Translations under genes and position numbers: made by a program
The notes under the pieces: generated by a model
Databases searched by the model: none
Told to the model about the DNA's origin: nothing
The model's input: the letters and a program-made list of their open reading frames with translations, nothing else
From: Candidatus Moraniibacteriota bacterium
GTDB taxonomy: Bacteria; Patescibacteriota; Minisyncoccia; Moranbacterales; UBA1568
Direction: 5' to 3'
Assembly (NCBI GenBank): GCA_030648835.1
Contig: JAUSGT010000001.1
Location: 69,010 to 133,009, forward strand
Length of the DNA: 64,000 nucleotides
In this document: positions 32,111 through 47,528 of the stretch, one piece after another
Numbering within the stretch: position 1 is the first letter of the stretch
Layout of the letters: every line of letters starts with the position of its first letter

Positions 32111-32256
32111 AGGATTTTGTATTAATGGATTGTCTTGTATTATAGCATGGACAAAAATCCTATAAGTTGTGGGTATTTGGCGTGGGCGTGGTAGGATGGG
32201 GGTATCAGAGGGGGAGATGGCGAGATATGGGTATTAAATAATTAATATTTAAAGTT

Positions 32257-32655
32257 ATGAAAGGATTCCACGCAAACATAGAAAAAGACACGCTCGAGAA
32301 CACCGACTTCCGTCGCGTGCTCTACACAGGCAAACACAGCCAGCTGGTACTGATGAGCTTGAAACCCAAAGAGGAGATCGGTCTCGAAACACATACCGAA
32401 AACGACCAGTTTTTTCGGATAGAAAAAGGCCACGGTATGTGCATCCTCGATGGCCATGAATACGCACTCGCCGACGGTTCAGCCATTGTGGTCCCGTCCG
32501 GCGCCAAGCACAATATCATCAATACGTCGGAGACAGAAGACCTCAAGCTCTATACCGTCTACTCTCCGGCACACCATAAGGACGGCATTGTCAGGGCTAC
32601 CAAAGAAGAAGCCGAAGCCAACGAAGCGGAGTTCGACGGCACAACTACCGAATAA
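32257..32655 (+). CDS. Cupin-domain protein, copy 1
   Basis: Small cupin barrel (GLETHTENDQFFRIEKGHGMCILDGHEYAL...VVPSGAKHNIIN). About 95% identical to the 37045 copy. Confidence 0.75.
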   Translation: MKGFHANIEKDTLENTDFRRVLYTGKHSQLVLMSLKPKEEIGLETHTENDQFFRIEKGHGMCILDGHEYALADGSAIVVPSGAKHNIINTSETEDLKLYTVYSPAHHKDGIVRATKEEAEANEAEFDGTTTE

Positions 32656-32677: not shown

Positions 32678-32717
32678 AAAGCCAGGGGCAGGCATAATAA
32701 ATATACTGAGCTGTGAA
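32678..32717 (+). repeat. Family-R 40-bp repeat, copy 1
   Basis: AAAGCCAGGGGCAGGCATAATAAATATACTGAGCTGTGAA. Five copies, all coding-capable for (K)AK(G/S)R(H/Q)(D/N/S)KYTE(Q/L)*. Confidence 0.6.
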
Positions 32718-32739
32718 TCGATAGAATAGTATTGATGAT

Positions 32740-32767
32740 ATTCTCACATTCTGCAGAATGTGAGAAT
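32740..32767. promoter_or_regulatory. 28-bp perfect palindrome P1 (ATTCTCACATTCTGCAGAATGTGAGAAT), candidate ArsR operator
   Basis: Perfect dyad 11 nt upstream of the arsR-family gene start. Two more copies at 33051 and 36936. Confidence 0.55.
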
Positions 32768-32778
32768 GTTGAAAAGGT

Positions 32779-33057
32779 ATGAAGAAGGTATTGAAGACAG
32801 CCAAACAATTGGAACGGCATTTCAAGGGAGCGGCCAATCATCGCCGCATCGAGATTTTGCTTTTGCTCGCTGATGATGAGGGTATGAGTTTGGACGGGAT
32901 TGCCGAGCGGTTAGATTGCAACATCAAAACCATTTCAGAACACACACGCAAGCTGGTGCAAGCCGGCTTGGTAAACAAGGCATACAAGGGGAGATCGGTC
33001 GAACACACGCTTTCTCCGTACGGAAAATCATTCTGCCGTTTTATAAGAACATTCTGA
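32779..33057 (+). CDS. ArsR/SmtB-family winged-helix transcriptional regulator
   Basis: HRRIEILLLLADDEGMSLDGIAERLDCNIKTISEHTRKLVQAGLV is a typical HTH_5 fold. Confidence 0.8.
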   Translation: MKKVLKTAKQLERHFKGAANHRRIEILLLLADDEGMSLDGIAERLDCNIKTISEHTRKLVQAGLVNKAYKGRSVEHTLSPYGKSFCRFIRTF

Positions 33058-33078
33058 CATTCTGCAGAATGTCAGAAT
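33051..33078. promoter_or_regulatory. 28-bp perfect palindrome P2 (ATTCTGACATTCTGCAGAATGTCAGAAT)
   Basis: Overlaps the arsR stop codon and lies ~70 nt upstream of the kinase-like gene. Confidence 0.55.
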
Positions 33079-33147
33079 GTCTGGGGTGGGTGGTTTTCGG
33101 GTGGGGGAGGTGGTAGGATGGACGTAACGAGTTAGGTAACAGGAATT

Positions 33148-34023: not shown

Positions 34024-34051
34024 TCGTCCGGGATGATAGGATGGACGTACT

Positions 34052-34669: not shown

Positions 34670-34784
34670 AGGGGAGTTATAGTTCCTATATATAGTTATT
34701 GGCAATAAATGTGTAGGTTACTGTATATTTAGGTAGATTTACATACTACTTGTGTAGATTTAGATCGTATGATAGTATCATTAT

Positions 34785-35504
34785 ATGGAAGAAGAATTAC
34801 TTACAATCGGTCAAGCTGCTGAATATCTTGGGGTCGCTCTGAACACGTTACGTCGTTGGGACGAAAGTGGTAAATTGGTTGCGATCAAAAAGGATGGTGG
34901 CACTCATCGATATTATCGTGAGAAAGACTTGGAAATTTTTGCCAGTGATTTGATGATGTTTGCTTCTGGGTGGATCGAGAGCGGAGTTGAGTTTCCAGGG
35001 ACATTCTATTGTTCGACCAGCTCGATTTTCAATGCCAGACTGACGAAAATGGAGTACGTGCTCATGCAGAAGCCGGGATTTGAAAAATTATATTCCTTGA
35101 TTGTTCTCGTTACCGGAGAGATTGGTGACAATTCGTTTGCTCACAACTTGGGGAAGTGGCCGGATACAGCAGGAATTTTTTTCGGTTACGACCTAGAGAA
35201 GCGGATCATTGTCCTGGCTGATCGAGGACTGGGTGTATTGGAGACGTTGTGCCAGGTGCGTCCAGACCTTCCGAGTCATGTGGCGGCGGTGGAAGTTGCC
35301 TTTACCGAATTTATTTCTGGCCGGGCACCGGAAAAGCGAGGTAACGGACTGAAACTCGTTCGCGAGGTCGTCACGGATCAGCCAATTGATTTATTTTATA
35401 CCAGCGGGGATGCCGAGGTGCGCATGCAAGGCGCGGATAAAGTGTTTCGTGTTACGCGCGGGCAACATATCTTGAGGGGATGTTTAGCAAAGATAGAATT
35501 TTAA
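34785..35504 (+). CDS. MerR/excisionase-type HTH fused to GHKL (histidine-kinase-like) ATPase domain
   Basis: N-terminal LTIGQAAEYLGVALNTLRRWDESGKL. ATPase N box (GEIGDNSFAHNLG), G1 (DRGLGV) and G2 (RGNGLKLV). Confidence 0.6.
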   Translation: MEEELLTIGQAAEYLGVALNTLRRWDESGKLVAIKKDGGTHRYYREKDLEIFASDLMMFASGWIESGVEFPGTFYCSTSSIFNARLTKMEYVLMQKPGFEKLYSLIVLVTGEIGDNSFAHNLGKWPDTAGIFFGYDLEKRIIVLADRGLGVLETLCQVRPDLPSHVAAVEVAFTEFISGRAPEKRGNGLKLVREVVTDQPIDLFYTSGDAEVRMQGADKVFRVTRGQHILRGCLAKIEF

Positions 35505-35812
35505 TCCATTGTAAAAAGCATATGAAATTACAGCTAGAAAAATTTGGCACGACGCTCATATCGCGGGAATTGGGGAGCGAGGCCTTCAAGGCATTCCAGT
35601 CGACTCTGCGCGAGCTTTCTCCTGATGAAGAGCTAGAAATAGATTTTTCTGGTGTACTGACATTGTCACCGTCATGGGCTGATGAATTTTTAAGTCCATT
35701 GCTGAATCAATTGGGTGACAGATTAATTCTTTTACCGAGTGACAATCTTTCAGTACACGCAACGCTCCGAATTCTTCAAGAGGCTAATAAGCAGAGTTTT
35801 ACGATGAAGTAA
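35480..35812 (+). CDS. STAS-like DUF4325-family protein (putative partner-switching antagonist)
   Basis: LEIDFSGVLTLSPSWADEFLSPLL resembles DUF4325. 25-nt overlap with the GHKL gene. Confidence 0.5.
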   Translation: MFSKDRILIHCKKHMKLQLEKFGTTLISRELGSEAFKAFQSTLRELSPDEELEIDFSGVLTLSPSWADEFLSPLLNQLGDRLILLPSDNLSVHATLRILQEANKQSFTMK

Positions 35813-35882
35813 TGTACCCCGCCCGCCGTGCTTGCTCTGTGAAATTGCAAAGCACCGACGGAGTCGGATTCCGCTTCGGAAA

Positions 35883-35922
35883 AAAGCCAAGAGCAGACAG
35901 AGTAAATATACTGAGCAGTGAA
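35883..35922 (+). repeat. Family-R repeat, copy 2 (variant AGCAGACAGAG)
   Basis: AAAGCCAAGAGCAGACAGAGTAAATATACTGAGCAGTGAA, followed by the conserved leader GTATTAAGGACTGGAAGAAATAAGAAT ATG. Confidence 0.6.
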
Positions 35923-35949
35923 GTATTAAGGACTGGAAGAAATAAGAAT

Positions 35950-36591
35950 ATGGCGTATATCTTTCTTGATGAAAGTGGTGATTTGGGGTTTGACTTCAAA
36001 AAGAAGGGCACTTCCAAGTTTTTTATTGTTACCATTCTCTTTACCGAAGACTCCAGAGGAGGGATTGAAAAGGTGGTGAAGAAAACACATTCAGAACTTG
36101 CGAAGAAATTCAAAAGACGTGTTGGTACATTGCATGCGGTTCAAGAAAAGCCCATTACCCGTACCCGTTTTCTGAAACGGATTGCCGAGAAGGAATGTGG
36201 TGTTATGGCTATTTATCTCAACAAGAAGAAGGTACATACGCATCTCCAGGACGAAAAACAAGTGCTTTACAATTACGTGACCAATATTCTCTTAGATAGA
36301 ATCTATACGAAAAAAATTCTTTCCCCGGATCTTGTCATAGAGCTCATCGCATCTCGGCGCGAAACCAACAAGTTTCTTAATGAAAACTTCAAAGATTACT
36401 TGAGCCGGCAAATAAAGAATAACCACAAAGGTCTTATGAAAATTTCCATTAAAACACCGGCTGAAGAGAAGTGTCTTCAGGCAGTAGACTTTCTGAGTTG
36501 GGCAATTTTTCGTAAATATGAGCGCGGAGATGAAAGTTACTACAATCTTTTCAAGAGAAAAATCATCGAGGAGAATCCTTTATTTCCGTAA
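35950..36591 (+). CDS. DUF3800-family protein
   Basis: N-terminal MAYIFLDESGD and C-terminal LQAVDFLSWAIFRKYE are DUF3800 hallmarks. Internal start of the 35812 ORF. Confidence 0.65.
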   Translation: MAYIFLDESGDLGFDFKKKGTSKFFIVTILFTEDSRGGIEKVVKKTHSELAKKFKRRVGTLHAVQEKPITRTRFLKRIAEKECGVMAIYLNKKKVHTHLQDEKQVLYNYVTNILLDRIYTKKILSPDLVIELIASRRETNKFLNENFKDYLSRQIKNNHKGLMKISIKTPAEEKCLQAVDFLSWAIFRKYERGDESYYNLFKRKIIEENPLFP

Positions 36592-36873: not shown

Positions 36874-36913
36874 AAAGCCAAGAGCAGACAGAGTAAATAT
36901 ACTGAGCAGTGAA
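36874..36913 (+). repeat. Family-R repeat, copy 3
   Basis: Identical to the copy-2 variant. Immediately preceded by a stop codon in the peptide frame, so not part of an intact gene. Confidence 0.6.
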
Positions 36914-36935
36914 TCCATAGAATAGTATTGATGAT

Positions 36936-36963
36936 ATTCTCACATTCTGCAGAATGTCAGAAT
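36936..36963. promoter_or_regulatory. 28-bp palindrome P3 (hybrid of P1/P2, one mismatch) upstream of cupin copy 2
   Basis: ATTCTCACATTCTGCAGAATGTCAGAAT, about 80 nt upstream of the 37045 start. Confidence 0.5.
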
Positions 36964-37044
36964 GATTGGGTGGGTGGGGGGAGGTGGTATGATGGGTGTA
37001 CCAGAGGGGAAGATTCGTGTATTAAATAATAATATTTCAATACT

Positions 37045-37443
37045 ATGAAAGGATTCAACACACACATAGAAAAAGATACGCTCGAGAACACCGACTTCCG
37101 TCGCGTGCTTTACACAGGCTCGCACAGCCAGCTGGTATTGATGAGTTTGAAACCCAAAGAGGAGATCGGCCTCGAAACACATACCGGAAACGACCAGTTT
37201 TTTCGGATAGAAAAAGGCCACGGCATGTGCATCATCGACGGCCATGAGTATGCACTCGCCGATGGTTCGGCTATCGTGGTCCCGTCCGGCGCCAAACACA
37301 ATATCATCAACACGTCGGAGACAGAAGACCTCAAGCTCTATACCGTCTACTCTCCGGCGCACCATAAGGACGGCATTGTCAGGGCTACCAAAGAAGAAGC
37401 CGAAGCCAACGAAGCGGAGTTCGACGGCACAACAACCGAATAA
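37045..37443 (+). CDS. Cupin-domain protein, copy 2 (duplicate)
   Basis: Near-identical to 32257..32655, including ~80 bp of upstream leader and ~60 bp downstream. Confidence 0.75.
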   Translation: MKGFNTHIEKDTLENTDFRRVLYTGSHSQLVLMSLKPKEEIGLETHTGNDQFFRIEKGHGMCIIDGHEYALADGSAIVVPSGAKHNIINTSETEDLKLYTVYSPAHHKDGIVRATKEEAEANEAEFDGTTTE

Positions 37444-37465: not shown

Positions 37466-37505
37466 AAAGCCAAGGGCAGGCATGATAAATATACTGAGCT
37501 GTGAA
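37466..37505 (+). repeat. Family-R repeat, copy 4
   Basis: AAAGCCAAGGGCAGGCATGATAAATATACTGAGCTGTGAA, then the leader GTATTAAGGATTGGAAGAAATAAAATT ATG. Confidence 0.6.
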
Positions 37506-37532
37506 GTATTAAGGATTGGAAGAAATAAAATT

Positions 37533-38018
37533 ATGAAAAAAACTAGTAGCAAGGGGATTGTTGGCGTATCTGGTGAATATTTTGTGGCTGCGGAACTTTC
37601 TCAGCGAGGCATTGTGGCTACCTTGACTCTCAAAAACACTCCCTATATCGACATACTTGCCACAAACTTAGAAAAGGGCACAACCGCCAACATTCAGGTG
37701 AAAACTATGTCTGTCGATAACAATGCTGGTTGGAGATTGGGGGAAAAAGATGGATTGCCTTCAAATATAAAGAATCACTTTTATGTGCTCGTTGATTTAC
37801 ATGGACCTGGTAAATTGCCCGAATATATAATCATACCCAAGAAAGTATTAGCAGATTTTATAAATAAGGGTCATGCTGAATGGCTTTTAGGAAAAAAGAA
37901 GGATGGCTCCTCTAGAAAAAATACTGGCGTTAGAGTTTTTGATCCAAACAGAAAAGTGTCTACTCGAAAATTTGCCGAAAAATACGTAAATAATTGGAGC
38001 ATATTAGATTTGTGGTAG
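37533..38018 (+). CDS. PD-(D/E)xK nuclease-fold protein (putative)
   Basis: GVSGEYFVAAEL...IDILATN...ANIQVKT matches an E...D...(Q/E)xK arrangement. Internal start of the 37482 ORF. Confidence 0.45.
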   Translation: MKKTSSKGIVGVSGEYFVAAELSQRGIVATLTLKNTPYIDILATNLEKGTTANIQVKTMSVDNNAGWRLGEKDGLPSNIKNHFYVLVDLHGPGKLPEYIIIPKKVLADFINKGHAEWLLGKKKDGSSRKNTGVRVFDPNRKVSTRKFAEKYVNNWSILDLW

Positions 38019-38026
38019 TAAAAGTT

Positions 38027-38374
38027 ATGGATAAGATAAAAGATTTGACTAAAAGAATACTAGCTTTCCGCAATGCTCGGGACTGGAAGCAATTTCACAA
38101 TCCGAAAGACGTGGCGCTCTCGCTGGTTTTGGAAGCGGCGGAGGTTATGGAACATTTCCAGTGGAAGAACCCGGCGGAAATTGAAGAGTATGTAAAAAAG
38201 CATAAGAAAGATATAGGCGAAGAATTGGCTGATGTTTTCAATTGGGTGTTGCTGCTGAGTCATGATTTGGGGATAGATATTGTAGAAGCGGCCAAAAAGA
38301 AAGTTAAAAAGAACGAAAAAAAGTACCCCGTAGAAAAAGCCAAAGGCAGGCATGATAAATATACTGAGCAGTGA
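38027..38374 (+). CDS. MazG-like nucleoside triphosphate pyrophosphohydrolase (small all-alpha NTP-PPase)
   Basis: ILAFRNARDWKQFHNPKDVALSLVLEAAEVMEHFQWK...ELADVFNWVLLLSHDLGIDI. The C-terminal tail is encoded by Family-R copy 5. Confidence 0.75.
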   Translation: MDKIKDLTKRILAFRNARDWKQFHNPKDVALSLVLEAAEVMEHFQWKNPAEIEEYVKKHKKDIGEELADVFNWVLLLSHDLGIDIVEAAKKKVKKNEKKYPVEKAKGRHDKYTEQ

Positions 38375-38375
38375 A
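38336..38375 (+). repeat. Family-R repeat, copy 5 (forms C-terminus of MazG-like gene)
   Basis: AAAGCCAAAGGCAGGCATGATAAATATACTGAGCAGTGAA. Confidence 0.6.
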
Positions 38376-38420
38376 TTGATTACCTCGCTGAGCAGGATTT
38401 CGCTAGGAATGTTAGGATAT

Positions 38421-38658: not shown

Positions 38659-39621
38659 ATGTCTGGTAAACAAGAAATAAAAATAATTCAAGAAACTTTC
38701 GACATAAACGCTATTTATGCAAGACGTGTTTTTGCTTCGGTGAATATTTCAAACTTTTTAGAGGAAGCGAGACAAATTATAACGAGCAAACCAAAGCCAT
38801 TTGTGAAATGGGTTGGGGGGAAGCGACAATTACTCAAGCAGTTTCGACTCCTTGATCTTTATCCACCGGACGAGTTTGATCCTGAGAAGGCAAGATATTT
38901 TGAGCCGTTTGTAGGGGGAGGCGCAGTGTTCTTTGATTTACTTCCGAGAAAGGCTTATTTGTCTGATCTTAATTTTGAGCTTGTCACAACTTATAATGTT
39001 ATTAAAAATGATGTTGAAAAGTTGATTACATCGTTAAAAAAACAAAAATATAATAAAGAGTATTATCTGAAAATCCGTTCAAAAAATCCTGAAAGGTTGT
39101 CTGATCTACAAATTGCTACTCGTTTTATATTTTTGAATCGCGCCGGCTTCAATGGGATGTATCGTGTAAATAGTAAAGGAGGGTTTAATGTTCCTTTCGG
39201 TAAATACGAGAATCCGCTTATTTGTGATGAAAAAAATCTTCGGAAAGTTTCGAAGGCGTTGCAGAATGTTGAAATAAAACACCAAGACTATAAGTTCGTT
39301 TTGAAGAAAGCAAAGAAAAGAGACTTTATATATTTTGATCCGCCATATCATCCAGTAAGTAAAACGGCAGCGTTTACTTCATATACCTCACAAGGTTTTG
39401 GGGAAAAAGAACAAATAGAATTACGTGATACATTTTTGAAACTTCACAAGAGAGGTTGTTTTGTGATGCTTTCAAATTCTGATGCGCCTTTTATTAATAA
39501 AATTTATTCTGAAATTAAAAAATATGGTGTCAGAATTAATAAGGTTGAAGCAGGGCGCGCAATAAATTCAAAGGCTTCTGGAAGGGGTAAGATCACAGAA
39601 ATATTGGTAACTAACTATTAA
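38659..39621 (+). CDS. Dam-family N6-adenine DNA methyltransferase (alpha class)
   Basis: FVKWVGGKRQLL, EPFVGGGAVFF, FLNRAGFNGMYRVN, IYFDPPYHP and LSNSD align with Dam motifs. Confidence 0.9.
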   Translation: MSGKQEIKIIQETFDINAIYARRVFASVNISNFLEEARQIITSKPKPFVKWVGGKRQLLKQFRLLDLYPPDEFDPEKARYFEPFVGGGAVFFDLLPRKAYLSDLNFELVTTYNVIKNDVEKLITSLKKQKYNKEYYLKIRSKNPERLSDLQIATRFIFLNRAGFNGMYRVNSKGGFNVPFGKYENPLICDEKNLRKVSKALQNVEIKHQDYKFVLKKAKKRDFIYFDPPYHPVSKTAAFTSYTSQGFGEKEQIELRDTFLKLHKRGCFVMLSNSDAPFINKIYSEIKKYGVRINKVEAGRAINSKASGRGKITEILVTNY

Positions 39622-39625
39622 TCTT

Positions 39626-40384
39626 ATGGCAAATAATAATTCGTGGAATAAAATTTTCGAAGATAATAATATTTTAGAGCACGATTTTTCTAAAAGCCCT
39701 TTTTATTTGTCTGCAGAAATGATAAAAAAATCAGTACAAGAGTTTAAGAAAACTAATGAGAAAGAGGTGCGTTGCTTATGTAAGATGGATACGCGAGAAA
39801 GCGTTCCAGAAATAATGAGAAGAAATGGATTGGTTTTGTTGCCAGTCAAAAATAAATATTATGTGATAGTAAACGGCGAAGGATATGTCGATATACCTGA
39901 AATCAATAGTGAAGCCGAAATCTACAACACTAAATTGGATTTTGATTTAGACACAGCGAAAATTGGAAACTCAGAAATGCAGCATCTTGATTTTGCTTAT
40001 GCTTCAAGCCTTATTAGAACATTCATGAGCGATCCTTCGCTAGTTCTAACAATTAGAGGGAGGAAATATACACCAGAGTTTAGTTATAAAATTGGTAACA
40101 ATATAATTGATACGAAGGGTGTTCAAACTGAAGTTGATGCCGGTTATGAAGGAAAGGACAAGATTGTTTTGATAGAAGCAAAGAACTCATCTACTAAAAA
40201 TACAATCATTAGACAATTGTATTATCCATATAGACAATGGGCAGAACACACAAAAAAGGAAGTCTTCTTATTATTTTTCGAGAAGAGGATTGATGAATAT
40301 TTGATATGGCAATACAGGTTTGCTGATAAAGACAGCTACGATTCTATTAAATTAGTTAGATCTAAAAAATATAAAATTGTTTAA
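39626..40384 (+). CDS. Putative type II restriction endonuclease (between two MTases; MboI/DpnII-like gene order)
   Basis: Sits between two DNA MTases in an M-R-M arrangement and has a PD-(D/E)xK-like VDAGYEGKDKIVLIEAK. Family not verified. Confidence 0.5.
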   Translation: MANNNSWNKIFEDNNILEHDFSKSPFYLSAEMIKKSVQEFKKTNEKEVRCLCKMDTRESVPEIMRRNGLVLLPVKNKYYVIVNGEGYVDIPEINSEAEIYNTKLDFDLDTAKIGNSEMQHLDFAYASSLIRTFMSDPSLVLTIRGRKYTPEFSYKIGNNIIDTKGVQTEVDAGYEGKDKIVLIEAKNSSTKNTIIRQLYYPYRQWAEHTKKEVFLLFFEKRIDEYLIWQYRFADKDSYDSIKLVRSKKYKIV

Positions 40385-41137
40385 GTGTCTGAAAAAGAGA
40401 TAAAACTGCATCCGGATGAGTTTGAAATGGAGTGCACTACAGTATGGGCATTTCCTCGTCGTGGTAATTGGGCTACACACAAGTCGGATTGGCGTGGTAA
40501 TTGGGCGCCAGAAGTTGCTCGAAATTTGATATTGCGTTATTCAAAGGAGGGTGATCATCTACTAGATTGCATGATCGGTGGTGGAACAACGGCAATAGAG
40601 GCAAAAATATTGAATCGTCATATTACTTGCGTTGATGTTAATGAAGAAGCTCTCAAACGGACAAGAGACGCTTTGAAATTTGATGTTGATAACAAAGCAA
40701 AACAACGAATAATAAAGTGCGATGCTCGAAACATGAGTTTTATCAAGGACGGAGAAATAGATTTTGTTCTCACTCATCCACCATACGCGGATATTATAAA
40801 ATATAGTGATGGAAAATTAGAGGATGACTTATCAGGTATACATAATATAGATGCCTTTGTAGATGAGATGGAGAAAGTTATCAAAGAAATGTTTCGAGTA
40901 CTAAAGAAAGGAAAATATTGTGCGATTTTGATGGGGGATACAAGACGGAATAAAATGTATCAGCCTCTCGCATTTAAGGTAATGGGTAGATGTCTGAGCG
41001 CAGGATTTGTCTTGAAAGAAGATATTATTAAAAGGCAGTTTAACTGTAAAGCAACTGGTTTTTGGGTGAATAGGTCAAAAGAGAGCAACTTTCTTTTAAT
41101 TATGCATGAACACTTATTTATTTTTCAGAAAATTTGA
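40385..41137 (+). CDS. DNA methyltransferase, N4/N6 family (second MTase of R-M module)
   Basis: AdoMet motif LLDCMIGGGTT and catalytic LTHPPYADI. Confidence 0.8.
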   Translation: MSEKEIKLHPDEFEMECTTVWAFPRRGNWATHKSDWRGNWAPEVARNLILRYSKEGDHLLDCMIGGGTTAIEAKILNRHITCVDVNEEALKRTRDALKFDVDNKAKQRIIKCDARNMSFIKDGEIDFVLTHPPYADIIKYSDGKLEDDLSGIHNIDAFVDEMEKVIKEMFRVLKKGKYCAILMGDTRRNKMYQPLAFKVMGRCLSAGFVLKEDIIKRQFNCKATGFWVNRSKESNFLLIMHEHLFIFQKI

Positions 41138-41250
41138 GATGCCAAAAAAGATACCATGAAAGATGTGAAAGATAAAGTAAAAAGATTTATTAATTGCATA
41201 GGTGAAAAACGTGGTGACGTTAATGAAATATTGATCATAAATTATTAAAT

Positions 41251-42924
41251 ATGCTTAACCTATTTAAAACTAAAAAAATACTTCAAGGCCCAGACTGGTC
41301 TTTTCAAGACGAAGCCGTAAAAAAAGTAGTTTCTGATTTTTTAAAGGAGCCACAAAGCAAAAAATTATTAGTCATCCCAACTGGAGGGGGGAAAACTATT
41401 GTTGGTTTTAAGGTCATTAACGAACTAATCGAAAAAGGCTTTCTTAAAAATGGCAAAAAAGCAGTTTGGATAGTTCATACAAAATGGTTAAAAAAACAAA
41501 CTGAACTAAAGCTAGTTTCAGCAATTGAAAAATTTCATTTTAATAAAGAAATACTCAGTATTCTTGAAATAAGAATGAAGTCAGATGCGCGTAATAATAT
41601 TTTTTTAACTCAAAAATCAAAAGAATATAAGATGGTAGTTATTGATGAGGCTCACCATTCAGCTGCAAATACTTACAAAGATTTTTTTAGACCTGATGTA
41701 AATGTACTTGGTCTAACAGCTACGCCCACAAGAACTGATGATCTCACGCTTGATTTTAAGGATATATCGTATGCAATTACTTTTAACGAACTTGTAAAAA
41801 GAAAAGTTATACTTTTACCAAAATTTATTACTGTAGAAACTGGGTTAACTATTGACGCCAGATCATTAAATTACTATTCGGAAAATGATTTTATTAAATT
41901 CGATATTGATGAAAGAAATAATATTATTGCCGAGAAAATATTCTTACTTAAAAGAAATAATAAAAGATCTTTTAATAAAATAATAATTTTCGTTGGATCT
42001 AATGCACATGTTAAGGAATTGTATGAAATACTGAAGAGAAAAAATAAGTTTTATGGAAACTTGTTCAAGTATGTTGGATACATATATAGTGGTGATAATA
42101 ATGATTTAAATATAGATAATGACTCATATTTAGAGAAACAACAGGGAATCAGCTCGTCAATATTAGTTAATTGTATGATTTTAAATGAAGGATACGACGA
42201 TCCTTCTATTGACACGGTAATAATGGCTACACCAAGTAACTCTATACTTTACTATATGCAATGCGTCGGGCGCGTGGTGCGTAATCCGGGTGGGTATAGC
42301 TCGAATGCAAATGTGGTGGAGATGGTAGATAAATTACCAAACATAAATTATAGGATTGATAACCGCTGGCTTTTTGCTGAAATTTCAGATCTCCTAGAGC
42401 CCGAGGTCATTGACGTTAGTTATGACTTTAACAACAAGGCCTCAGTTATTAGGAAGATTCTTTTGGAACACAAGGTCAAAGCTAAATATATTGATTTATT
42501 TGATGAGAAACAAAGCTTAGAGGATTTCACCTTACTCCTATTTGCAGACGCGCCAAATTATGAAGCTTCGACATGGAAGCCAATATATTTATTTGAAAAA
42601 AATCGTTCCAAATATATAGATGCTTTTAATAAAATCTCTGCTAATGTTTCTGAATATTCACGCTATAATGATGAATTTGTTTTTTTCCAGACTCTCAATT
42701 TTTCTAAAGACAATTATTATTTTAGGTATCCAGAAATGCGAATATCTCTCATACTAGCCCTTGAAAGAGCTAATAATTTAAAAAATTTAAAACAAAAGGT
42801 TGATTGTATTAAATACTATACTTTTCATGAAACACAATATAAAGCTTGGTGGAAAATTATTATTTCTTTGCTATTTAAATCATTAACTAAAATTTATGCA
42901 AACCTTAAAGGAAGTAGAGCTTAA
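41251..42924 (+). CDS. SF2 DEAH-box helicase (ResIII-like)
   Basis: Motif I VIPTGGGKT, II VIDEAHH, III LGLTATP and VI QCVGRVVR. Confidence 0.8.
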   Translation: MLNLFKTKKILQGPDWSFQDEAVKKVVSDFLKEPQSKKLLVIPTGGGKTIVGFKVINELIEKGFLKNGKKAVWIVHTKWLKKQTELKLVSAIEKFHFNKEILSILEIRMKSDARNNIFLTQKSKEYKMVVIDEAHHSAANTYKDFFRPDVNVLGLTATPTRTDDLTLDFKDISYAITFNELVKRKVILLPKFITVETGLTIDARSLNYYSENDFIKFDIDERNNIIAEKIFLLKRNNKRSFNKIIIFVGSNAHVKELYEILKRKNKFYGNLFKYVGYIYSGDNNDLNIDNDSYLEKQQGISSSILVNCMILNEGYDDPSIDTVIMATPSNSILYYMQCVGRVVRNPGGYSSNANVVEMVDKLPNINYRIDNRWLFAEISDLLEPEVIDVSYDFNNKASVIRKILLEHKVKAKYIDLFDEKQSLEDFTLLLFADAPNYEASTWKPIYLFEKNRSKYIDAFNKISANVSEYSRYNDEFVFFQTLNFSKDNYYFRYPEMRISLILALERANNLKNLKQKVDCIKYYTFHETQYKAWWKIIISLLFKSLTKIYANLKGSRA

Positions 42925-44044
42925 GTTTGATCAACTTTTACTTGACCCAAATAATCCTCGTTTTGCTAAGCATAGCGATGAGCTTGTTGCTGAAGATGAC
43001 TATGAGGAAATGCAGTCCGAGACCTTTTCAAAGATGATTCAGAGGGAAAACAACTTTGAAATTGCGGAGCTTGCAAAAAATATTAGCAAAAATGGGTACC
43101 TAGGTTTTGACAGGATGTTTGTTAAAAAATTAAAAGGATCTAAGTTTCTAGTTATTGAAGGCAATAGAAGGTTAGCTGCCATTTATTTTCTTCTAAAGCA
43201 GGAAGAATCACACCGCACAAGAGGAGCTCTCGCCCCAGAAATTAAAAAAACATTTTTAAAGATACCCTGTGTTGATCTTACAAATTGGGAAACGGAAGAT
43301 ATAAAGAGGTTGCTTGGCCTCAGACACTATGATTCTGTAAAAGATTGGAGGCCCCTGCCAGGTTCATTCAATCTTTTCTTAACGTATATGGCGGAATATG
43401 CAAAAGTGAACAATATTGAAATCTTGAATAGCGACCACGCAAAGCATTTTATTTATGATCAAAATATTAGTAGAAAGATAGCAGATATCTATGCAATGAA
43501 GGAAGCGAGGGTTAAGTCAATGATCTTAACTTACAGAGTATATCTTCAAGTTTTGGAATATCACAACGATATCAACTTTGAAACAACGAATCTTTTTTCC
43601 ATAATTGAAGAGACTATAAGTAAGGAAATTTTGAGGAAAAGATTTGAGTTTGATCCATCCGCGGGCCAGTTTTCTGAAAATGGACTAGAATTGTTTATTG
43701 ACTTATGTATTGGAAAAGATGGAAGTGCCCCAGTTATAACTGAAGTGTCACGCGGCGAATCTACTCTAAGAGACTATGCTTATGTTCTACAGGAAGGGAG
43801 TGACTACGATCGTGAACGAATAGAGCTGAACAAAGAAAAAAGTGGTGATGTGAAAGCAGATGTTAAATCAAGTCAAAATCAAAGAAATTTAATAAATACT
43901 CTGAAGCAAATTAAATTAGAATTAGGAAAAATTAATCTTGACCAGATAAAGATTGATGATATTACAGACCGTGAAAAAGAAATTATCGATGATCTACAGG
44001 AAACACTGAACAAGCTAAAAGGGGCATCAGGGGGAAAACTTTAA
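42896..44044 (+). CDS. ParB/Srx-fold nuclease-like domain protein
   Basis: LLLDPNNPRF (ParB box I-like) and VIEGNRRLAAIYFL (GxRR motif). 29-nt overlap with the helicase gene. Confidence 0.7.
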   Translation: MQTLKEVELKFDQLLLDPNNPRFAKHSDELVAEDDYEEMQSETFSKMIQRENNFEIAELAKNISKNGYLGFDRMFVKKLKGSKFLVIEGNRRLAAIYFLLKQEESHRTRGALAPEIKKTFLKIPCVDLTNWETEDIKRLLGLRHYDSVKDWRPLPGSFNLFLTYMAEYAKVNNIEILNSDHAKHFIYDQNISRKIADIYAMKEARVKSMILTYRVYLQVLEYHNDINFETTNLFSIIEETISKEILRKRFEFDPSAGQFSENGLELFIDLCIGKDGSAPVITEVSRGESTLRDYAYVLQEGSDYDRERIELNKEKSGDVKADVKSSQNQRNLINTLKQIKLELGKINLDQIKIDDITDREKEIIDDLQETLNKLKGASGGKL

Positions 44045-44049
44045 ATAGT

Positions 44050-44991
44050 ATGAGTGATCTTTACTTTCGAAAAACTTACAGTGAATTCGTTGAGTTTGTT
44101 TCCAACACTAATGATGAACTTATTATCTTATGTCCGTATATAAAACTAGAACCATTAAAATTGCTATTAGAAAAAGTTAAACCAGGAATAAAGGTAATAG
44201 TTGTAGCAAGATGGAAAATTAGTGATTTGGTATTTGGGAGTTCTGATATTGAGGTTTTTGAATATTTGAAAAGTCTTAATCATAGTTTTTACATTAACAA
44301 TAAAATACACCTTAAGGTCATTATTAAAGATAAAAGGAATATATTAATTGGAAGTGCAAATATAACAGGATCTGGGCTTGGGCTGTTTGATAGTTCAAAT
44401 ATTGAGGCTATTGCCATCGAGAGCTTAGATGAGAAGTATTTACCATCAGTATATTCAATACTAAGAGAATCAATAGAAGTCGATGATGTTTTGGTTAATA
44501 CAATATCTGAAAAGTTAGAAGGGTTTCAAAATGTTAGAGAAGAAAAAGACAAAATTACTGCTGAATTGGGGGAATTAGAAAAACAGATATTTATAAAAAA
44601 GAAAAAAGGGATTTTGGTTTATGATTTTCCTTTTACAGGATCGCCGGCAGTACTCCTTAAAGCTATAAATGAAAAAGATATTAATGATACTGTCCAACAT
44701 GATCTTCAGGTATTAAAATTAACTACTAGAGAGATTAATCTTAGTTTATTGAGGGAGGCATTTTTAACGTCAGACGCCTATATTTGGCAAGAACAAAATA
44801 TCCCAGAAGAAGCTCTCTTTGGAAAGTATTCGGAGTTACTTCATAATGCTCTAATTGATGATCCTAAGCCTTATCGAAAACAGGTAAAGGAGTTAGTAGT
44901 AAATATGTTTGTTTGGACATCAGAACTTTCAGACGATTATGTTATAAAAAAATATAATCATACCCAATCTCTAGTCAGGAGACAAAATTAA
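44050..44991 (+). CDS. PLD-family (HKD) nuclease-like protein
   Basis: A single HKD motif HLKVIIKDKRNILIGSAN (H-x-K-x4-D-x6-GSxN). Confidence 0.75.
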   Translation: MSDLYFRKTYSEFVEFVSNTNDELIILCPYIKLEPLKLLLEKVKPGIKVIVVARWKISDLVFGSSDIEVFEYLKSLNHSFYINNKIHLKVIIKDKRNILIGSANITGSGLGLFDSSNIEAIAIESLDEKYLPSVYSILRESIEVDDVLVNTISEKLEGFQNVREEKDKITAELGELEKQIFIKKKKGILVYDFPFTGSPAVLLKAINEKDINDTVQHDLQVLKLTTREINLSLLREAFLTSDAYIWQEQNIPEEALFGKYSELLHNALIDDPKPYRKQVKELVVNMFVWTSELSDDYVIKKYNHTQSLVRRQN

Positions 44992-44999
44992 TATACGGA

Positions 45000-45467
45000 A
45001 TGAAGAAAAGTATTACTGATATCAATTGGATGAGGTTCAAAACGACTAAAGGTCAAGAGTTTGTTGTGGGTGTAGATTTTACCGCAGAAGACGCATTCAT
45101 TAAAGCTAAAGAATTGCGACAAGAAGGAAAAGCAATAGATGCTCTAGGTGTAATCGATGTATCACTTTATTTAGATTGGAATAGGCCTGCTGCACATAAT
45201 ATTAAGGCAAGCATTTTACTTACTTTAAAGCGATTTGGTGAAGCAATTAGTTCGTGTGATGAAGCAATTCGACTGAATCCGAATTTGGCGGAGTCTTTTA
45301 ATAATAAAGCAGTAATATTAAAGGCATCTGAGAATTATGAGGATGCACTTACCTTGATTGAGAAAGCCCTTGATTTAAATCCAGATAATCCCGCACTTAT
45401 TTATAATAAGGAGAGTATTTTAGAAGCTCTGCGAAATCAAAATGGTCTAAATAGGAAAATGGGCTAG
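45000..45467 (+). CDS. TPR-repeat protein
   Basis: Three or more TPR-like repeats (AISSCDEAIRLNPNLAESFNNKAVIL...ALDLNPDNPALIYNK). Confidence 0.7.
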   Translation: MKKSITDINWMRFKTTKGQEFVVGVDFTAEDAFIKAKELRQEGKAIDALGVIDVSLYLDWNRPAAHNIKASILLTLKRFGEAISSCDEAIRLNPNLAESFNNKAVILKASENYEDALTLIEKALDLNPDNPALIYNKESILEALRNQNGLNRKMG

Positions 45468-45543
45468 GTACTTTTTTCTTGCAAAAGGAGTACAAAGGCG
45501 GCACAACTGAATAGCGAACTATCGAGAGAGTGGCGGTGGGGGG

Positions 45544-45572
45544 CTTGCTATTTTCATAAAAGTATGCTATAA
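45544..45572 (+). promoter_or_regulatory. Sigma70-like promoter (TTGCTA-17-TATAAT)
   Basis: Near-consensus -35 and a perfect -10 with 17-nt spacing, about 125 nt upstream of the AbiEii-like gene. Confidence 0.5.
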
Positions 45573-45654
45573 TGGGTGTGTAAAAGAAGAAAAAAATAAA
45601 AACCATCCAAAATATTAAAAGAAGTTAGGAAAGAGCCATATTCACAAGATATTC

Positions 45655-45687
45655 CACACCCCAGTCTTCTGGGGTGTTTTTATTTAT
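45655..45687 (+). terminator. Rho-independent terminator-like hairpin between promoter and AbiEii-like gene
   Basis: ACACCCCAG tctt CTGGGGTGT followed by TTTTTATTTATT, 12 nt before the start codon. Confidence 0.5.
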
Positions 45688-45699
45688 TAACCCACTAGT

Positions 45700-46908
45700 A
45701 TGTTAGGTAAAGAAGAAATTGATCAGAAAGCGGCGGAATTTGGTTTAAATCCTGTAGATGTAGAAAAGGATTATGTTTATGGATGGCTTTTAAATTCCAT
45801 TTACTCGGACTCTTCTTTGGGGGACCTGCTTGTGTTAAAAGGTGGAAATGCTTTAAGAAAAGGTTATCTGCTAGGGACACGGTTTTCTAAAGACCTAGAT
45901 TTTTCTCTAGAAAAAGGAATACAAATAGATTTTCTTCACGAAGAATTAGATAAAGTTTGTTCAGTAGTCAATGCTCAAACTCAAGTAAAATTTGAACTAG
46001 ATCGGACTAGGGTTGAACCTAAGAATCTGCCGATTGCTAACCTTGATGTGTTGGAGGCAAGACTCTATTTTAAGGGTTTTTATGGGGAAGAGACTATTTC
46101 TCTTAAAACGCAACTAGATATCACCCAGTTTGATAAGATCTACCTCCCAGTTCAGTCAAGGAAAATTCTGCATCCTTATTCAGACGCAGAAGCTTGTAGT
46201 GGAAATATCAAATGTCAAAAAGCTGAAGAAATTGTTGCTTCTAAACTTAATAGTCTTCTCCATAGAAGGAAAGTCTGTGATTTATTTGATCTTCTTAAGT
46301 CTACGATGTTTACCAACGATGTTTTGTTGGATAGATCAGAGGTAGTTAAAACTTTTCTGAAGAAGACTATTTATGAGGCTACTCCAGATACACCAAAACA
46401 ACAGCTTCTTAGCACTCCTTTGGAAGAGTTCCGTCCATTTTGGGGAAGTCTGGTGACTCCAAATGCTAGTATCATCCAATTTGATGATGTGGTGGCAAAC
46501 TTCGGAGTTTTAATTAGTAGTTTTTTTGACTTGGTAGCTCCTTTATCTCCACAATTTGTTCCAGCTGGAGCTTTTGGTGGCTCCAGAAGATATGGGTCGT
46601 CTATGATGCGGTATGGGAGTGTGCCTAGTTTTTTCTCAGCTGGTATACGAAATATCATTATTAATGCCGGAAGAACTCAGAAGCTTATTCAGCTTACCTA
46701 TGACAACTATACAAGGTTAGTAGAACCGTATTCAATGGAGTATTATGTTCGAAAATCAGACGGGGTAGGATTGGAATATTTTTGGGGATATGATACAACT
46801 GGTGGAAAATCAGGAGAACAGTCGATAAAGAGGTTCATTTGTGACAAAATACAATTTGCCAAAGAAACAGATAGGGGCTTTAATCCAAGGTTTGCGGTTG
46901 AATTTTAA
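45700..46908 (+). CDS. AbiEii/DUF1814-family nucleotidyltransferase (abortive-infection toxin-like) with ~100-aa C-terminal extension
   Basis: EKDYVYGWLL...LVLKGGNALRKGYLLGTRFSKDLDFS is the AbiEii signature. No AbiEi-like gene is adjacent. Confidence 0.8.
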   Translation: MLGKEEIDQKAAEFGLNPVDVEKDYVYGWLLNSIYSDSSLGDLLVLKGGNALRKGYLLGTRFSKDLDFSLEKGIQIDFLHEELDKVCSVVNAQTQVKFELDRTRVEPKNLPIANLDVLEARLYFKGFYGEETISLKTQLDITQFDKIYLPVQSRKILHPYSDAEACSGNIKCQKAEEIVASKLNSLLHRRKVCDLFDLLKSTMFTNDVLLDRSEVVKTFLKKTIYEATPDTPKQQLLSTPLEEFRPFWGSLVTPNASIIQFDDVVANFGVLISSFFDLVAPLSPQFVPAGAFGGSRRYGSSMMRYGSVPSFFSAGIRNIIINAGRTQKLIQLTYDNYTRLVEPYSMEYYVRKSDGVGLEYFWGYDTTGGKSGEQSIKRFICDKIQFAKETDRGFNPRFAVEF

Positions 46909-46922
46909 TTAGATAGGAAAGT

Positions 46923-47528
46923 ATGAATAATGCCTTTGATGAAATTTTAGAGAAATCGAAACGAGATATGAAAGAAATCTCGGATGAATTTAATGTCAAA
47001 TTTAGAGAATTCGATACTAAGTTGGAATCATCACGGAAACTAAGTATTTCAGCAATATATCAAATAGTTATTCTGTCATCTAGTATCGTTGGATTTTCAG
47101 TGTCCCTTTTTTCGATCCCTGTCTTGCAGTCTAGATTAAATTTGGATAACCTCCGTTTTTCTTGGTATTTTTTTATGTCGGTTATTATGTTAGGATTCTT
47201 TATTCTAATTTTTGAGGGAAGAGCAAAATATGCAAAAACATGGAAAAATTTTCAAGTGAGTAGATTTCCAGATGCGGGTGATTATAATTACACGATTAAA
47301 GAAAAAATTATTGCAACATCTATTGTTATATTAACTATCTTTTATCCTGCGAATTTAATATTCAACAGGGTTTACAAGGAGGAAAGTGAAAAAGCTTTTA
47401 AGCAAAGAATAAACGGATTTGTAGTACACAAATTAGCGAGTATAGAAAACGCATTAATTTTTCTAGAAAACATCCTTTTTATATTATTTATATGTGGATT
47501 AATTATACTAGTTTCAAGTTTTTCATAG
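46923..47528 (+). CDS. Hypothetical membrane protein (201 aa)
   Basis: Four predicted TM segments, AT-rich codon usage like the island. Confidence 0.45.
   Translation: MNNAFDEILEKSKRDMKEISDEFNVKFREFDTKLESSRKLSISAIYQIVILSSSIVGFSVSLFSIPVLQSRLNLDNLRFSWYFFMSVIMLGFFILIFEGRAKYAKTWKNFQVSRFPDAGDYNYTIKEKIIATSIVILTIFYPANLIFNRVYKEESEKAFKQRINGFVVHKLASIENALIFLENILFILFICGLIILVSSFS

Follow-up and report, generated by a model that had tools for sequence, protein, structure and literature searches.

What does a kinase-like ATPase fused to a helix-turn-helix (HTH) domain do when it is encoded just ahead of a small STAS-like protein? The question is raised by two adjacent genes at positions 34,785 to 35,812 of a 64,000-nucleotide stretch of contig JAUSGT010000001.1 (the window) from a Candidatus Moraniibacteriota bacterium. 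A first-pass annotation of this DNA had proposed a partner-switching-like pair, set among defense cassettes and acting as a self-contained signalling or abortive-infection switch rather than in sigma-factor control. On balance, we read the pair as an autoregulated, CapK/CapS-type signalling operon whose minimal form is particular to Patescibacteria, and in which a kinase-repressor (protein 1) would act together with a phosphorylatable STAS partner (protein 2). This reading is carried by the domains, folds and catalytic motifs of the two proteins, their strict pairing and their homology to CapK and CapS, and further by the conservation of an operator and promoter and by co-variation between the HTH and the operator; repression, phosphotransfer and the acceptor residue are the steps that we infer.

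The 185 residues of protein 1 that follow the HTH were found to have no Pfam, NCBIfam or PADLOC match of their own. The family is small, since an exhaustive search of 1.84 billion cluster representatives returned only 291 relatives. The N, G1 and G2 boxes of a GHKL ATPase, originally read from the single protein, held up well: the N box (E112, N116 and H120; E-x-x-x-N-x-x-x-H), the G1 box (D146, G148 and G150; D-x-G-x-G) and the G2 box (R185, G186, G188 and L189) were invariant in 46 relatives (29-50% identity), and the fold agreed with the Bergerat alpha/beta sandwich. Nearly all of the top 50 PDB matches of the AlphaFold2 model (pLDDT 92.6) were GHKL proteins, including TRAP1/Hsp90, the histidine kinase 4u7n and GyrB. 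These matches had probabilities of 0.91-1.0 and an E-value of about 1e-4, with TM-scores that were low (0.25-0.37) since the query model includes the HTH. Pfam HATPase_c_2 gave weak matches in 9 of the 46 relatives (best 8.7e-4) and none for the window protein at E up to 1, so that among the Pfam families named in the first-pass annotation HTH_17 and DUF4325 were found above threshold and HATPase_c_2 was not. A profile search of PDB sequences with the GHKL domain returned HTH matches only. Given the invariant boxes, the confident model, the GHKL-dominated PDB list and the weak HATPase_c_2 matches among relatives, the GHKL assignment was considered sound. With only about 140-160 residues and without a transducer domain, it is in line with the kinase branch of the GHKL superfamily. 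In the model, residues 56-100 form a helical linker, which carries a near-invariant W63.

The two same-strand open reading frames (ORFs), 34785-35504 (239 aa) and 35480-35812 (110 aa), lie where they were first annotated, and it was the start of the second that had to be revised. Gene 2 is present in 83 related loci, and in every one of them its start is an ATG equivalent to position 35522, preceded by an AT-rich spacer of mostly 10-25 nt (range 3-65) in which stop codons are often found. The resulting 96-aa form, read from this ATG, is present at 100% identity in a public record from a Candidatus Moranbacteria metagenome-assembled genome (MAG). Because the homologue starts and this record point to ATG 35522 and do not back the longest ORF, the real layout is most likely a 17-nt gap, and the 110-aa protein and 25-nt overlap reported at first are most likely an artefact of longest-ORF choice.

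Protein 2 consists of a STAS domain only, without a winged HTH. The DUF4325/STAS-like pattern that had been recognized in it was upheld, narrowly by sequence (24.1-24.4 bits against a Pfam DUF4325 cut-off of 23, with relatives at 31-41 bits) and also by structure. The model (pLDDT 92) has a beta-alpha-beta-alpha-beta-alpha topology, and its best PDB structure matches were the STAS domains of SLC26A11 and of the stressosome proteins RsbR and RsbS (TM 0.65-0.68; probability 0.97, with weak E-values of 0.08-0.5). The agreement with classical STAS proteins is one of fold alone, as Pfam STAS_2 reached only E 0.15 and the local motif is SPSW, not the DSSG of SpoIIAA. The family core reads (S/T)49-P50-S51-(W/F)52-A-D-E-F, with L-S49-P50-S51-W52-A-D-E-F as the window form and with P50, S51, D54 and E55 invariant. 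It was noted that this motif sits at the N-terminus of helix alpha-2, which begins at P50 in the model.

We compared both proteins with the recently described CapK and CapS, using sequences from the published source data. CapK is a serine kinase of 368 aa with an HTH-STAS-GHKL layout that single-stranded DNA (ssDNA) activates through its STAS-GHKL groove, while CapS is a STAS-winged HTH repressor that binds palindromes as a dimer and is phosphorylated by CapK on Ser54; mutation of CapK N218 strongly cut this phosphorylation (Chambers et al., EMBO J 2026, PMC13373217). The profile of the protein 1 family aligned with CapK in hhalign (probability 79%, E 1.6e-5, 107 columns), with the GHKL part alone aligned and N116 falling on the catalytic N218. 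The protein 2 profile aligned with the STAS domain of CapS (probability 62%, E 7.3e-5, 57 columns), placing the invariant S51 on the phosphoserine S54. Against SpoIIAB and RsbW, the protein 1 profile reached only E 0.03-0.09, and protein 2 gave no meaningful alignment with SpoIIAA. The SpoIIAB and SpoIIAA sequences used here were checked against PDB entries. Because both profiles match CapK and CapS far better than SpoIIAB and SpoIIAA, profile comparison identifies the pair as distantly related to CapK/CapS, though its domains are arranged differently, in keeping with the original view that sigma-factor control is not its role. Protein 2 was also considered as a trans-acting equivalent of the internal STAS domain of CapK, which was disfavoured (11 columns, E 0.07, N-terminal half of CapK). 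The CapS match being far better, protein 2 resembles the substrate and not the sensor domain.

Like CapK/CapS, the pair comprises adjacent genes in which the kinase precedes the STAS protein, the kinases both carry an N-terminal HTH, and both systems appear to regulate their own promoter. The wiring differs. Protein 1 is built as HTH-linker-GHKL in 239 aa with no room for a STAS domain, whereas CapK has one internally; and protein 2 lacks the winged HTH of CapS, leaving the kinase with the only DNA-binding domain of the module. CapS recognizes palindromes, whereas the predicted binding of the module is to direct repeats, with its specificity mapped to the kinase HTH. CapKS pairs are found upstream of immune operons in 348 of 443 cases and also beside restriction-modification systems (Chambers et al. 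2026, PMC13373217), whereas our pair has no conserved neighbour; its family also appears restricted to bacteria of the candidate phyla radiation (CPR) and is extremely conserved. CapK/CapS pairs have been known only since 2026, when they were reported to sense damage and control immune operons, and the module would represent the same two-protein core with DNA binding placed on the kinase, no sensor STAS and no immune cargo.

Two further known systems share parts of this design. VapK, VapS and VapC form a related toxin-antitoxin variant in which VapS is a phospho-regulated antitoxin (Chambers et al. 2026, PMC13373217). 'Escherichia VapS' (9z7o) was the best PDB sequence match of the protein 2 profile (E 0.066), and the VapS fragment is itself a strong DUF4325 member (9e-18, 64 bits). 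VapS resembles protein 2 in being a small STAS protein of the DUF4325 type that lacks a DNA-binding domain. However, VapKSC has a third gene encoding a PIN toxin (VapC) and a C-terminal inhibitory helix on VapS, and VapK has an internal STAS and no HTH; no toxin gene is linked to the module. A plasmid match to VapS, traced for a VapK sequence, led only to a truncated DUF4325 ORF in a Leptotrichia plasmid. SpoIIAB/SpoIIAA and RsbW/RsbV are likewise minimal GHKL kinases with a STAS-fold protein that carries a serine at the N-terminus of helix alpha-2. SpoIIAB aligns in register with protein 1 at the N, G1, lid and G2 motifs, yet the sequence relation is marginal and that to SpoIIAA undetectable; unlike these pairs, the module has an HTH fused to its kinase and involves no sigma factor as far as is visible.

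As side observations on the kinase, W63 of protein 1 (S-G-W-I-E-S) resembles by eye the ssDNA-stacking W68 of CapK (D-A-W-I-D-E), a lead only, as no tool aligned the two regions. Kinase variants without the HTH also exist (about 190-200 aa, e.g. P0280). One of them, in Logan SRR22388175 (positions 162-1009 of locus L087), is followed by a DUF4325 gene overlapping it by 4 nt, and the named relatives of this DUF4325 partner belong to Peregrinibacteria/Peribacteraceae.

The MerR/excisionase-type HTH assigned to the N-terminus of protein 1 was confirmed by three Pfam models above their gathering thresholds. Residues 5-52 match HTH_17 (E 1.1e-10, 42 bits, cut-off 27), and the same domain matches MerR_1 (39.5 bits, cut-off 21.6) and MerR (35.5 bits, cut-off 28.2). 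NCBIfam TIGR01764 (excisionase) and HTH_BldC (NF033787) were matched as well, the latter at 27.5 bits and E 2e-6, which is below the family threshold (curated cut-off 77 bits), and the BldC structures 6ama and 6amk were among the best PDB sequence matches of the protein 1 profile. PADLOC matched the module in the HTH alone, with mad1 (a 60-aa HTH model) and, weakly, a Type II methyltransferase at residues 3-36; these matches were not counted as membership of a defense system. BldC is a stand-alone MerR-like protein of 68 aa that forms a head-to-tail polymer on contiguous 9-bp direct repeats, contacting bases or the minor groove through Lys26, Arg30 and His46 (Schumacher et al. 2018, PMC5859096). 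In the alignment of protein 1 with BldC, these residues correspond to residue 20, R24 and H41. Together with the excisionase (Xis) type, BldC is among the closest known counterparts of this winged HTH; it binds direct repeats and not palindromes, as is predicted for protein 1. The BldC site is likewise an AT-rich tract followed after about 4 bp by specificity bases, and the variable bases of the module lie 4-5 bp from the AT-rich part. Unlike BldC, protein 1 joins its HTH to a GHKL domain, and the repeats of the module have a spacing of 20-21 bp.

A putative operator for this HTH was found in the 100 bp 5' of gene 1, which in essentially every locus hold three conserved direct repeats 20-21 bp apart (Table 1). 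The repeats read TGnGTAGATT(T) or, in other loci, TGCATAG(A/T)TT, often with a fourth degenerate repeat upstream, and the chain has a spacing of 21-20-21 bp in the window and in many other loci. The third repeat overlaps a -35-like TTGTGT or TTGCAT, with an extended -10 (TGnTAnnAT) 17 bp on and the ATG 6-7 nt later; it lies 35-36 nt from the ATG in 62 of 77 loci. Core positions of the repeats were at least 90% conserved across 42 loci of the GTAG class, where fourfold-degenerate sites are 25-55% identical, and the -10 consensus TATGnTAnnAT was conserved in 63 aligned promoters. Repeat pairs were counted 161 times in promoters of the module family, compared to once elsewhere in 823 kb. A generic promoter scan passed over this conserved promoter, probably since its -35 fits three of six consensus positions. 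Because the ATG follows the extended -10 by only 6-7 nt, the mRNA is probably leaderless or nearly so, taking the transcription start as predicted from the promoter. No terminator was detected after gene 2 in a generic terminator scan, and an Rfam search of 30-40 kb found no RNA family.

Residue 20 of the HTH, aligned with the DNA-contacting Lys26 of BldC, was found to follow the operator class. Asparagine was paired with TGnGTAGATT in 41 of 41 loci and aspartate with TGCATAG(A/T)TT (the CATAG class, e.g. TGCATAGATT) in 32 of 32, so that the residue tracks the two classes in 73/73 loci; glutamine occurs at one locus, with the repeat TGTATAGATT. Residue 14 splits alike, being tyrosine with the GTAG class and isoleucine, phenylalanine or leucine with the CATAG class. 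When a neighbour-joining tree was made from gene 2 and the kinase domain, with the HTH left out, at least 13 changes of state were counted for residue 20, although the tree is poorly resolved. We take the co-variation as strong comparative support for binding of protein 1 to its own promoter, and since the predicted site overlaps the -35, it most likely acts there as a repressor. The pairing of residue 20 with the operator would offer an experimentally tractable recognition code, possibly with orthogonal regulator-operator pairs. It was noted that one Harrisonbacteria MAG has two copies of the module, one with N20 and GTAG repeats (JAHFLF010000007; 83% identity to the window protein) and one with D20 and CATAG repeats (JAHFLF010000001; 59% identity). 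If both contigs are binned correctly, these may be orthogonal regulator-operator paralogues.

We sought the module across GTDB species genomes and recovered 80 loci from many CPR lineages, including Azam-, Nomura-, Taylor-, Uhr-, Falkow-, Doudna-, Peregrini-, Sung-, Harrison- and Nealsonbacteria, with 59-91% identity to the window protein 1. Both genes were present together in 83 of 86 related loci and no other window gene recurred; clustering of all flanking ORFs at the 80 loci yielded no further conserved neighbour and no third conserved gene. With its own conserved operator and promoter, the pair is in line with the self-contained signalling module that had been suggested, and it was found in no conserved larger operon, housekeeping or other. 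Seven contigs (L023, L035, L053, L063, L071, L072 and L077), several of them short, come from MAGs labelled as non-CPR (Gammaproteobacteria, Elusimicrobiaceae, Rikenellaceae, Roseivirgaceae and Bdellovibrionales) and are suspected to be mis-binned CPR contigs.

The high protein identity of 72-91% was not matched at synonymous sites, which are near saturation. Gene 1 was 76-92% identical where other genes common to the same locus pairs were mostly 27-60% identical, and second codon positions were 87-97% identical among relatives at 72% protein identity or more. At fourfold-degenerate sites, identity to the window gene was no more than 25-55%, also for pairs at 92% protein identity, and in some pairs at that identity synonymous sites were fully randomised. 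A tblastn search of plasmid and phage collections with the GHKL domain, and a scan of IMG/VR, returned no homologue. The combination of high protein identity, diverged fourfold sites and absence from these collections points to long-term, very strong purifying selection and not to recent spread. Recent horizontal spread was accordingly rejected as the cause of the high identity, with one subclade that does show more recent exchange. Some lateral exchange has occurred, since the gene tree departs from taxonomic labels and this subclade has a fourfold identity of 0.67-0.87.

The CPR is a large and almost uncultured bacterial branch whose regulation is largely unknown, and the module family spans a wide range of its lineages. 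That the pair is kept almost unchanged across them suggests a conserved cellular role, and its standing among the most conserved proteins of these loci points to an important, testable function. The CPR-wide extreme conservation, combined with a legible protein-DNA recognition pairing in a variant that profile searches relate to CapK/CapS, appears to be the notable new feature here. A further-reaching version, which we put forward with low probability, is that the pair forms an ancient core signalling circuit of Patescibacteria and is not accessory, with protein 2 acting on an unlinked conserved target. If so, the kinase-transcription factor would set the phosphorylation of the STAS protein, the target might be for example the transcription or translation machinery, and the near-invariance of both proteins across the CPR would reflect this common target.

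In the autoregulated CapK/CapS-type operon that we favour, the BldC-like winged HTH of protein 1 would bind three to four direct repeats set two helical turns apart, and binding at the last repeat, over the -35, would repress the operon's own promoter and its probably leaderless mRNA. The CapK-like GHKL serine kinase domain would bind co-translated protein 2 and, upon a signal, phosphorylate it at the start of helix alpha-2, most likely on S51, with S49 as the alternative. Phosphorylation would then change the complex, altering either the occupancy of DNA by the kinase-repressor or the engagement by protein 2 of a partner encoded elsewhere.

Several observations weigh against this reading. The window protein 1 reaches no Pfam GHKL model, and the homology to CapK and CapS comes from profile-to-single-sequence comparisons of moderate probability. 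The VapS alignment places the VapS phosphoserine opposite P50, which leaves the acceptor ambiguous between S49 and S51. The input signal of CapK is not transferable, because the ssDNA-sensing STAS is absent from protein 1. No second operator cluster is present in the window, so that no output beyond autoregulation is visible there. Furthermore, the HTH and the operator lie within 150 bp, and block recombination of two old alleles could account for part of their association.

Could the GHKL domain instead work without phosphotransfer? It might be a dimerisation or clamp module, as in GyrB, MutL, Hsp90 and MORC, making protein 1 an ATP-dependent DNA-binding switch in which this domain controls HTH assembly on the repeats and the STAS protein regulates non-covalently and is not a substrate. 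Structurally, protein 1 does match ATPases best (TRAP1/Hsp90, GyrB) and not SpoIIAB, direct repeats two helical turns apart would suit oligomeric assembly, and the N box consensus E-I-G-N-N-S-F-D-H resembles by eye the E-x-x-x-N-S-x-D that we take to be typical of GyrB/Hsp90-type ATPases. We nevertheless consider this switch unlikely, as the domain lacks the transducer domain that such ATPases need and is small, its specific sequence relatives (CapK and HATPase_c_2) are protein kinases, and protein 2 retains the invariant serine aligned with the CapS phosphosite. A module akin to VapKSC, with either a toxic kinase or a STAS protein restraining an effector elsewhere, would account for the compact autoregulated operon in variable genomic contexts, the DUF4325 antitoxin VapS, the restriction-modification and AbiEii genes nearby in the window, and a gene tree whose departure from taxonomy hints at lateral transfer. 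Such a toxin-antitoxin or abortive-infection role appears improbable, however: no effector gene is linked, PADLOC matches nothing outside the HTH, the plasmid, phage and viral collections hold no copies, neighbours are mostly housekeeping genes, and the contrast in identity with other genes comes with nearly saturated synonymous sites.

Textbook partner switching pairs a GHKL protein with a STAS-like one. Its classical form, in which an alternative sigma factor is controlled by an anti-sigma kinase of the RsbW/SpoIIAB type together with the antagonist of that kinase, would draw on the boxes in register with SpoIIAB and on the Azambacteria loci, where the pair lies about 1.2 kb downstream of dnaG-rpoD. 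We judge it highly improbable, since the similarity to SpoIIAB is weak and SpoIIAA does not align, a sigma factor gene is linked in the Azambacteria lineage only, and protein 1 has its own DNA-binding domain with a matching operator. Equally remote is a role like that of CapKS, in which the pair would control the operon directly downstream, in the window for example the DUF3800 gene and the restriction island. Both proteins are homologous to CapK and CapS, CapKS precedes varied immune operons, and a DUF3800 gene and a defense island do follow the pair here; but of 10 sampled loci, 8 have housekeeping genes downstream, some others have the next ORF on the opposite strand, the operator repeats are confined to the pair's own promoter, and protein 2 lacks the winged HTH that makes CapS a repressor.

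The genomic context was then considered with respect to defense. In the window, a low-GC island (29-39% GC, compared to about 48% elsewhere) lies 3-12 kb downstream of the pair and looks like an acquired defense island. It encodes a D12 adenine methylase, a DUF6996/DUF6997 protein, an N6_N4 methylase, a ResIII helicase, a 382-aa protein, a PLD-like protein, a TPR protein and an AbiEii toxin. In the ten sampled loci, the next gene encodes MnmA, ArgRS, EF-P, HrcA, L21, Ham1, an LD-carboxypeptidase, an M10 peptidase or, in two cases, a DNA methylase. No PIN or other effector gene was linked to the pair in any locus. The defense or abortive-infection role first suggested for the pair is therefore unsupported, because it draws on the restriction and Abi context of one locus and the extreme conservation, which we judged atypical for defense or toxin-antitoxin genes, speaks against it; flanks elsewhere are mostly housekeeping.

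Table 1. Coordinates of the module and of nearby features in the window
Feature	Positions	Strand	Description
Repeat R0	34689-34698	+	TATATAGTTA; degenerate, 21 bp before R1; weaker than R1-R3
Operator direct repeat R1	34710-34719	+	TGTGTAGGTT
Operator direct repeat R2	34730-34739	+	TAGGTAGATT
Operator direct repeat R3	34751-34760	+	TGTGTAGATT; overlaps -35-like TTGTGT at 34750-34755
Extended -10	34770-34778	+	TG-a-TAGTAT; 17 bp past the -35; ATG 6 nt on
Gene 1	34785-35504	+	239 aa; 1-53 winged HTH, 56-100 helical linker, ~100-239 GHKL domain
Gene 2	35522-35812	+	96 aa; DUF4325 STAS-like
Copies of 24-nt core	32688-32711, 35893-35916, 36884-36907, 37476-37499, 38346-38369	+	GCAGRCAKRRTAAATATACTGAGC
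Copies of extended repeat	32678-32768, 35883-35952, 36874-36964, 37466-37535, 38336-38405		
Cupin gene, two copies	32257-32655, 37045-37443		132 aa
ArsR-type HTH gene	32779-33057		
28-nt palindrome	32740-32767, 33051-33081, 36936-36963		ATTCTCACATTCTGCAGAATGTGAGAAT; near-perfect
Upstream motif	32181-32204, 33103-33126, 34026-34049, 36977-37000		GGTGGTAGGATGGRCGTA
DUF3800 ORF	35812-36591		probable start ATG 35950
Low-GC island	38659-47528		

Several minor features were noted around the pair (Table 1). A 24-nt core occurs in five copies within 6 kb, where none are expected by chance, and the pair lies inside the stretch marked by this repeat. Each core is contained within a repeat of 40-90 nt and either overlaps a small gene at its 3' end or follows it closely, in a cassette-like layout. 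The probable start of the DUF3800 gene comes directly after one such intergenic repeat, and within the long ORF the Pfam match starts at residue 49. The two copies of the cupin gene are 88% identical over 300 nt, and a 132-aa cupin is also encoded about 2.5 kb downstream of the pair in six Azambacteria loci (L001-L006). The palindrome is found on both sides of the ArsR-type HTH gene, plus one more copy, and may be an operator or a terminator. The upstream motif lies 3-50 nt 5' of four gene starts and may be a common promoter or translation signal.

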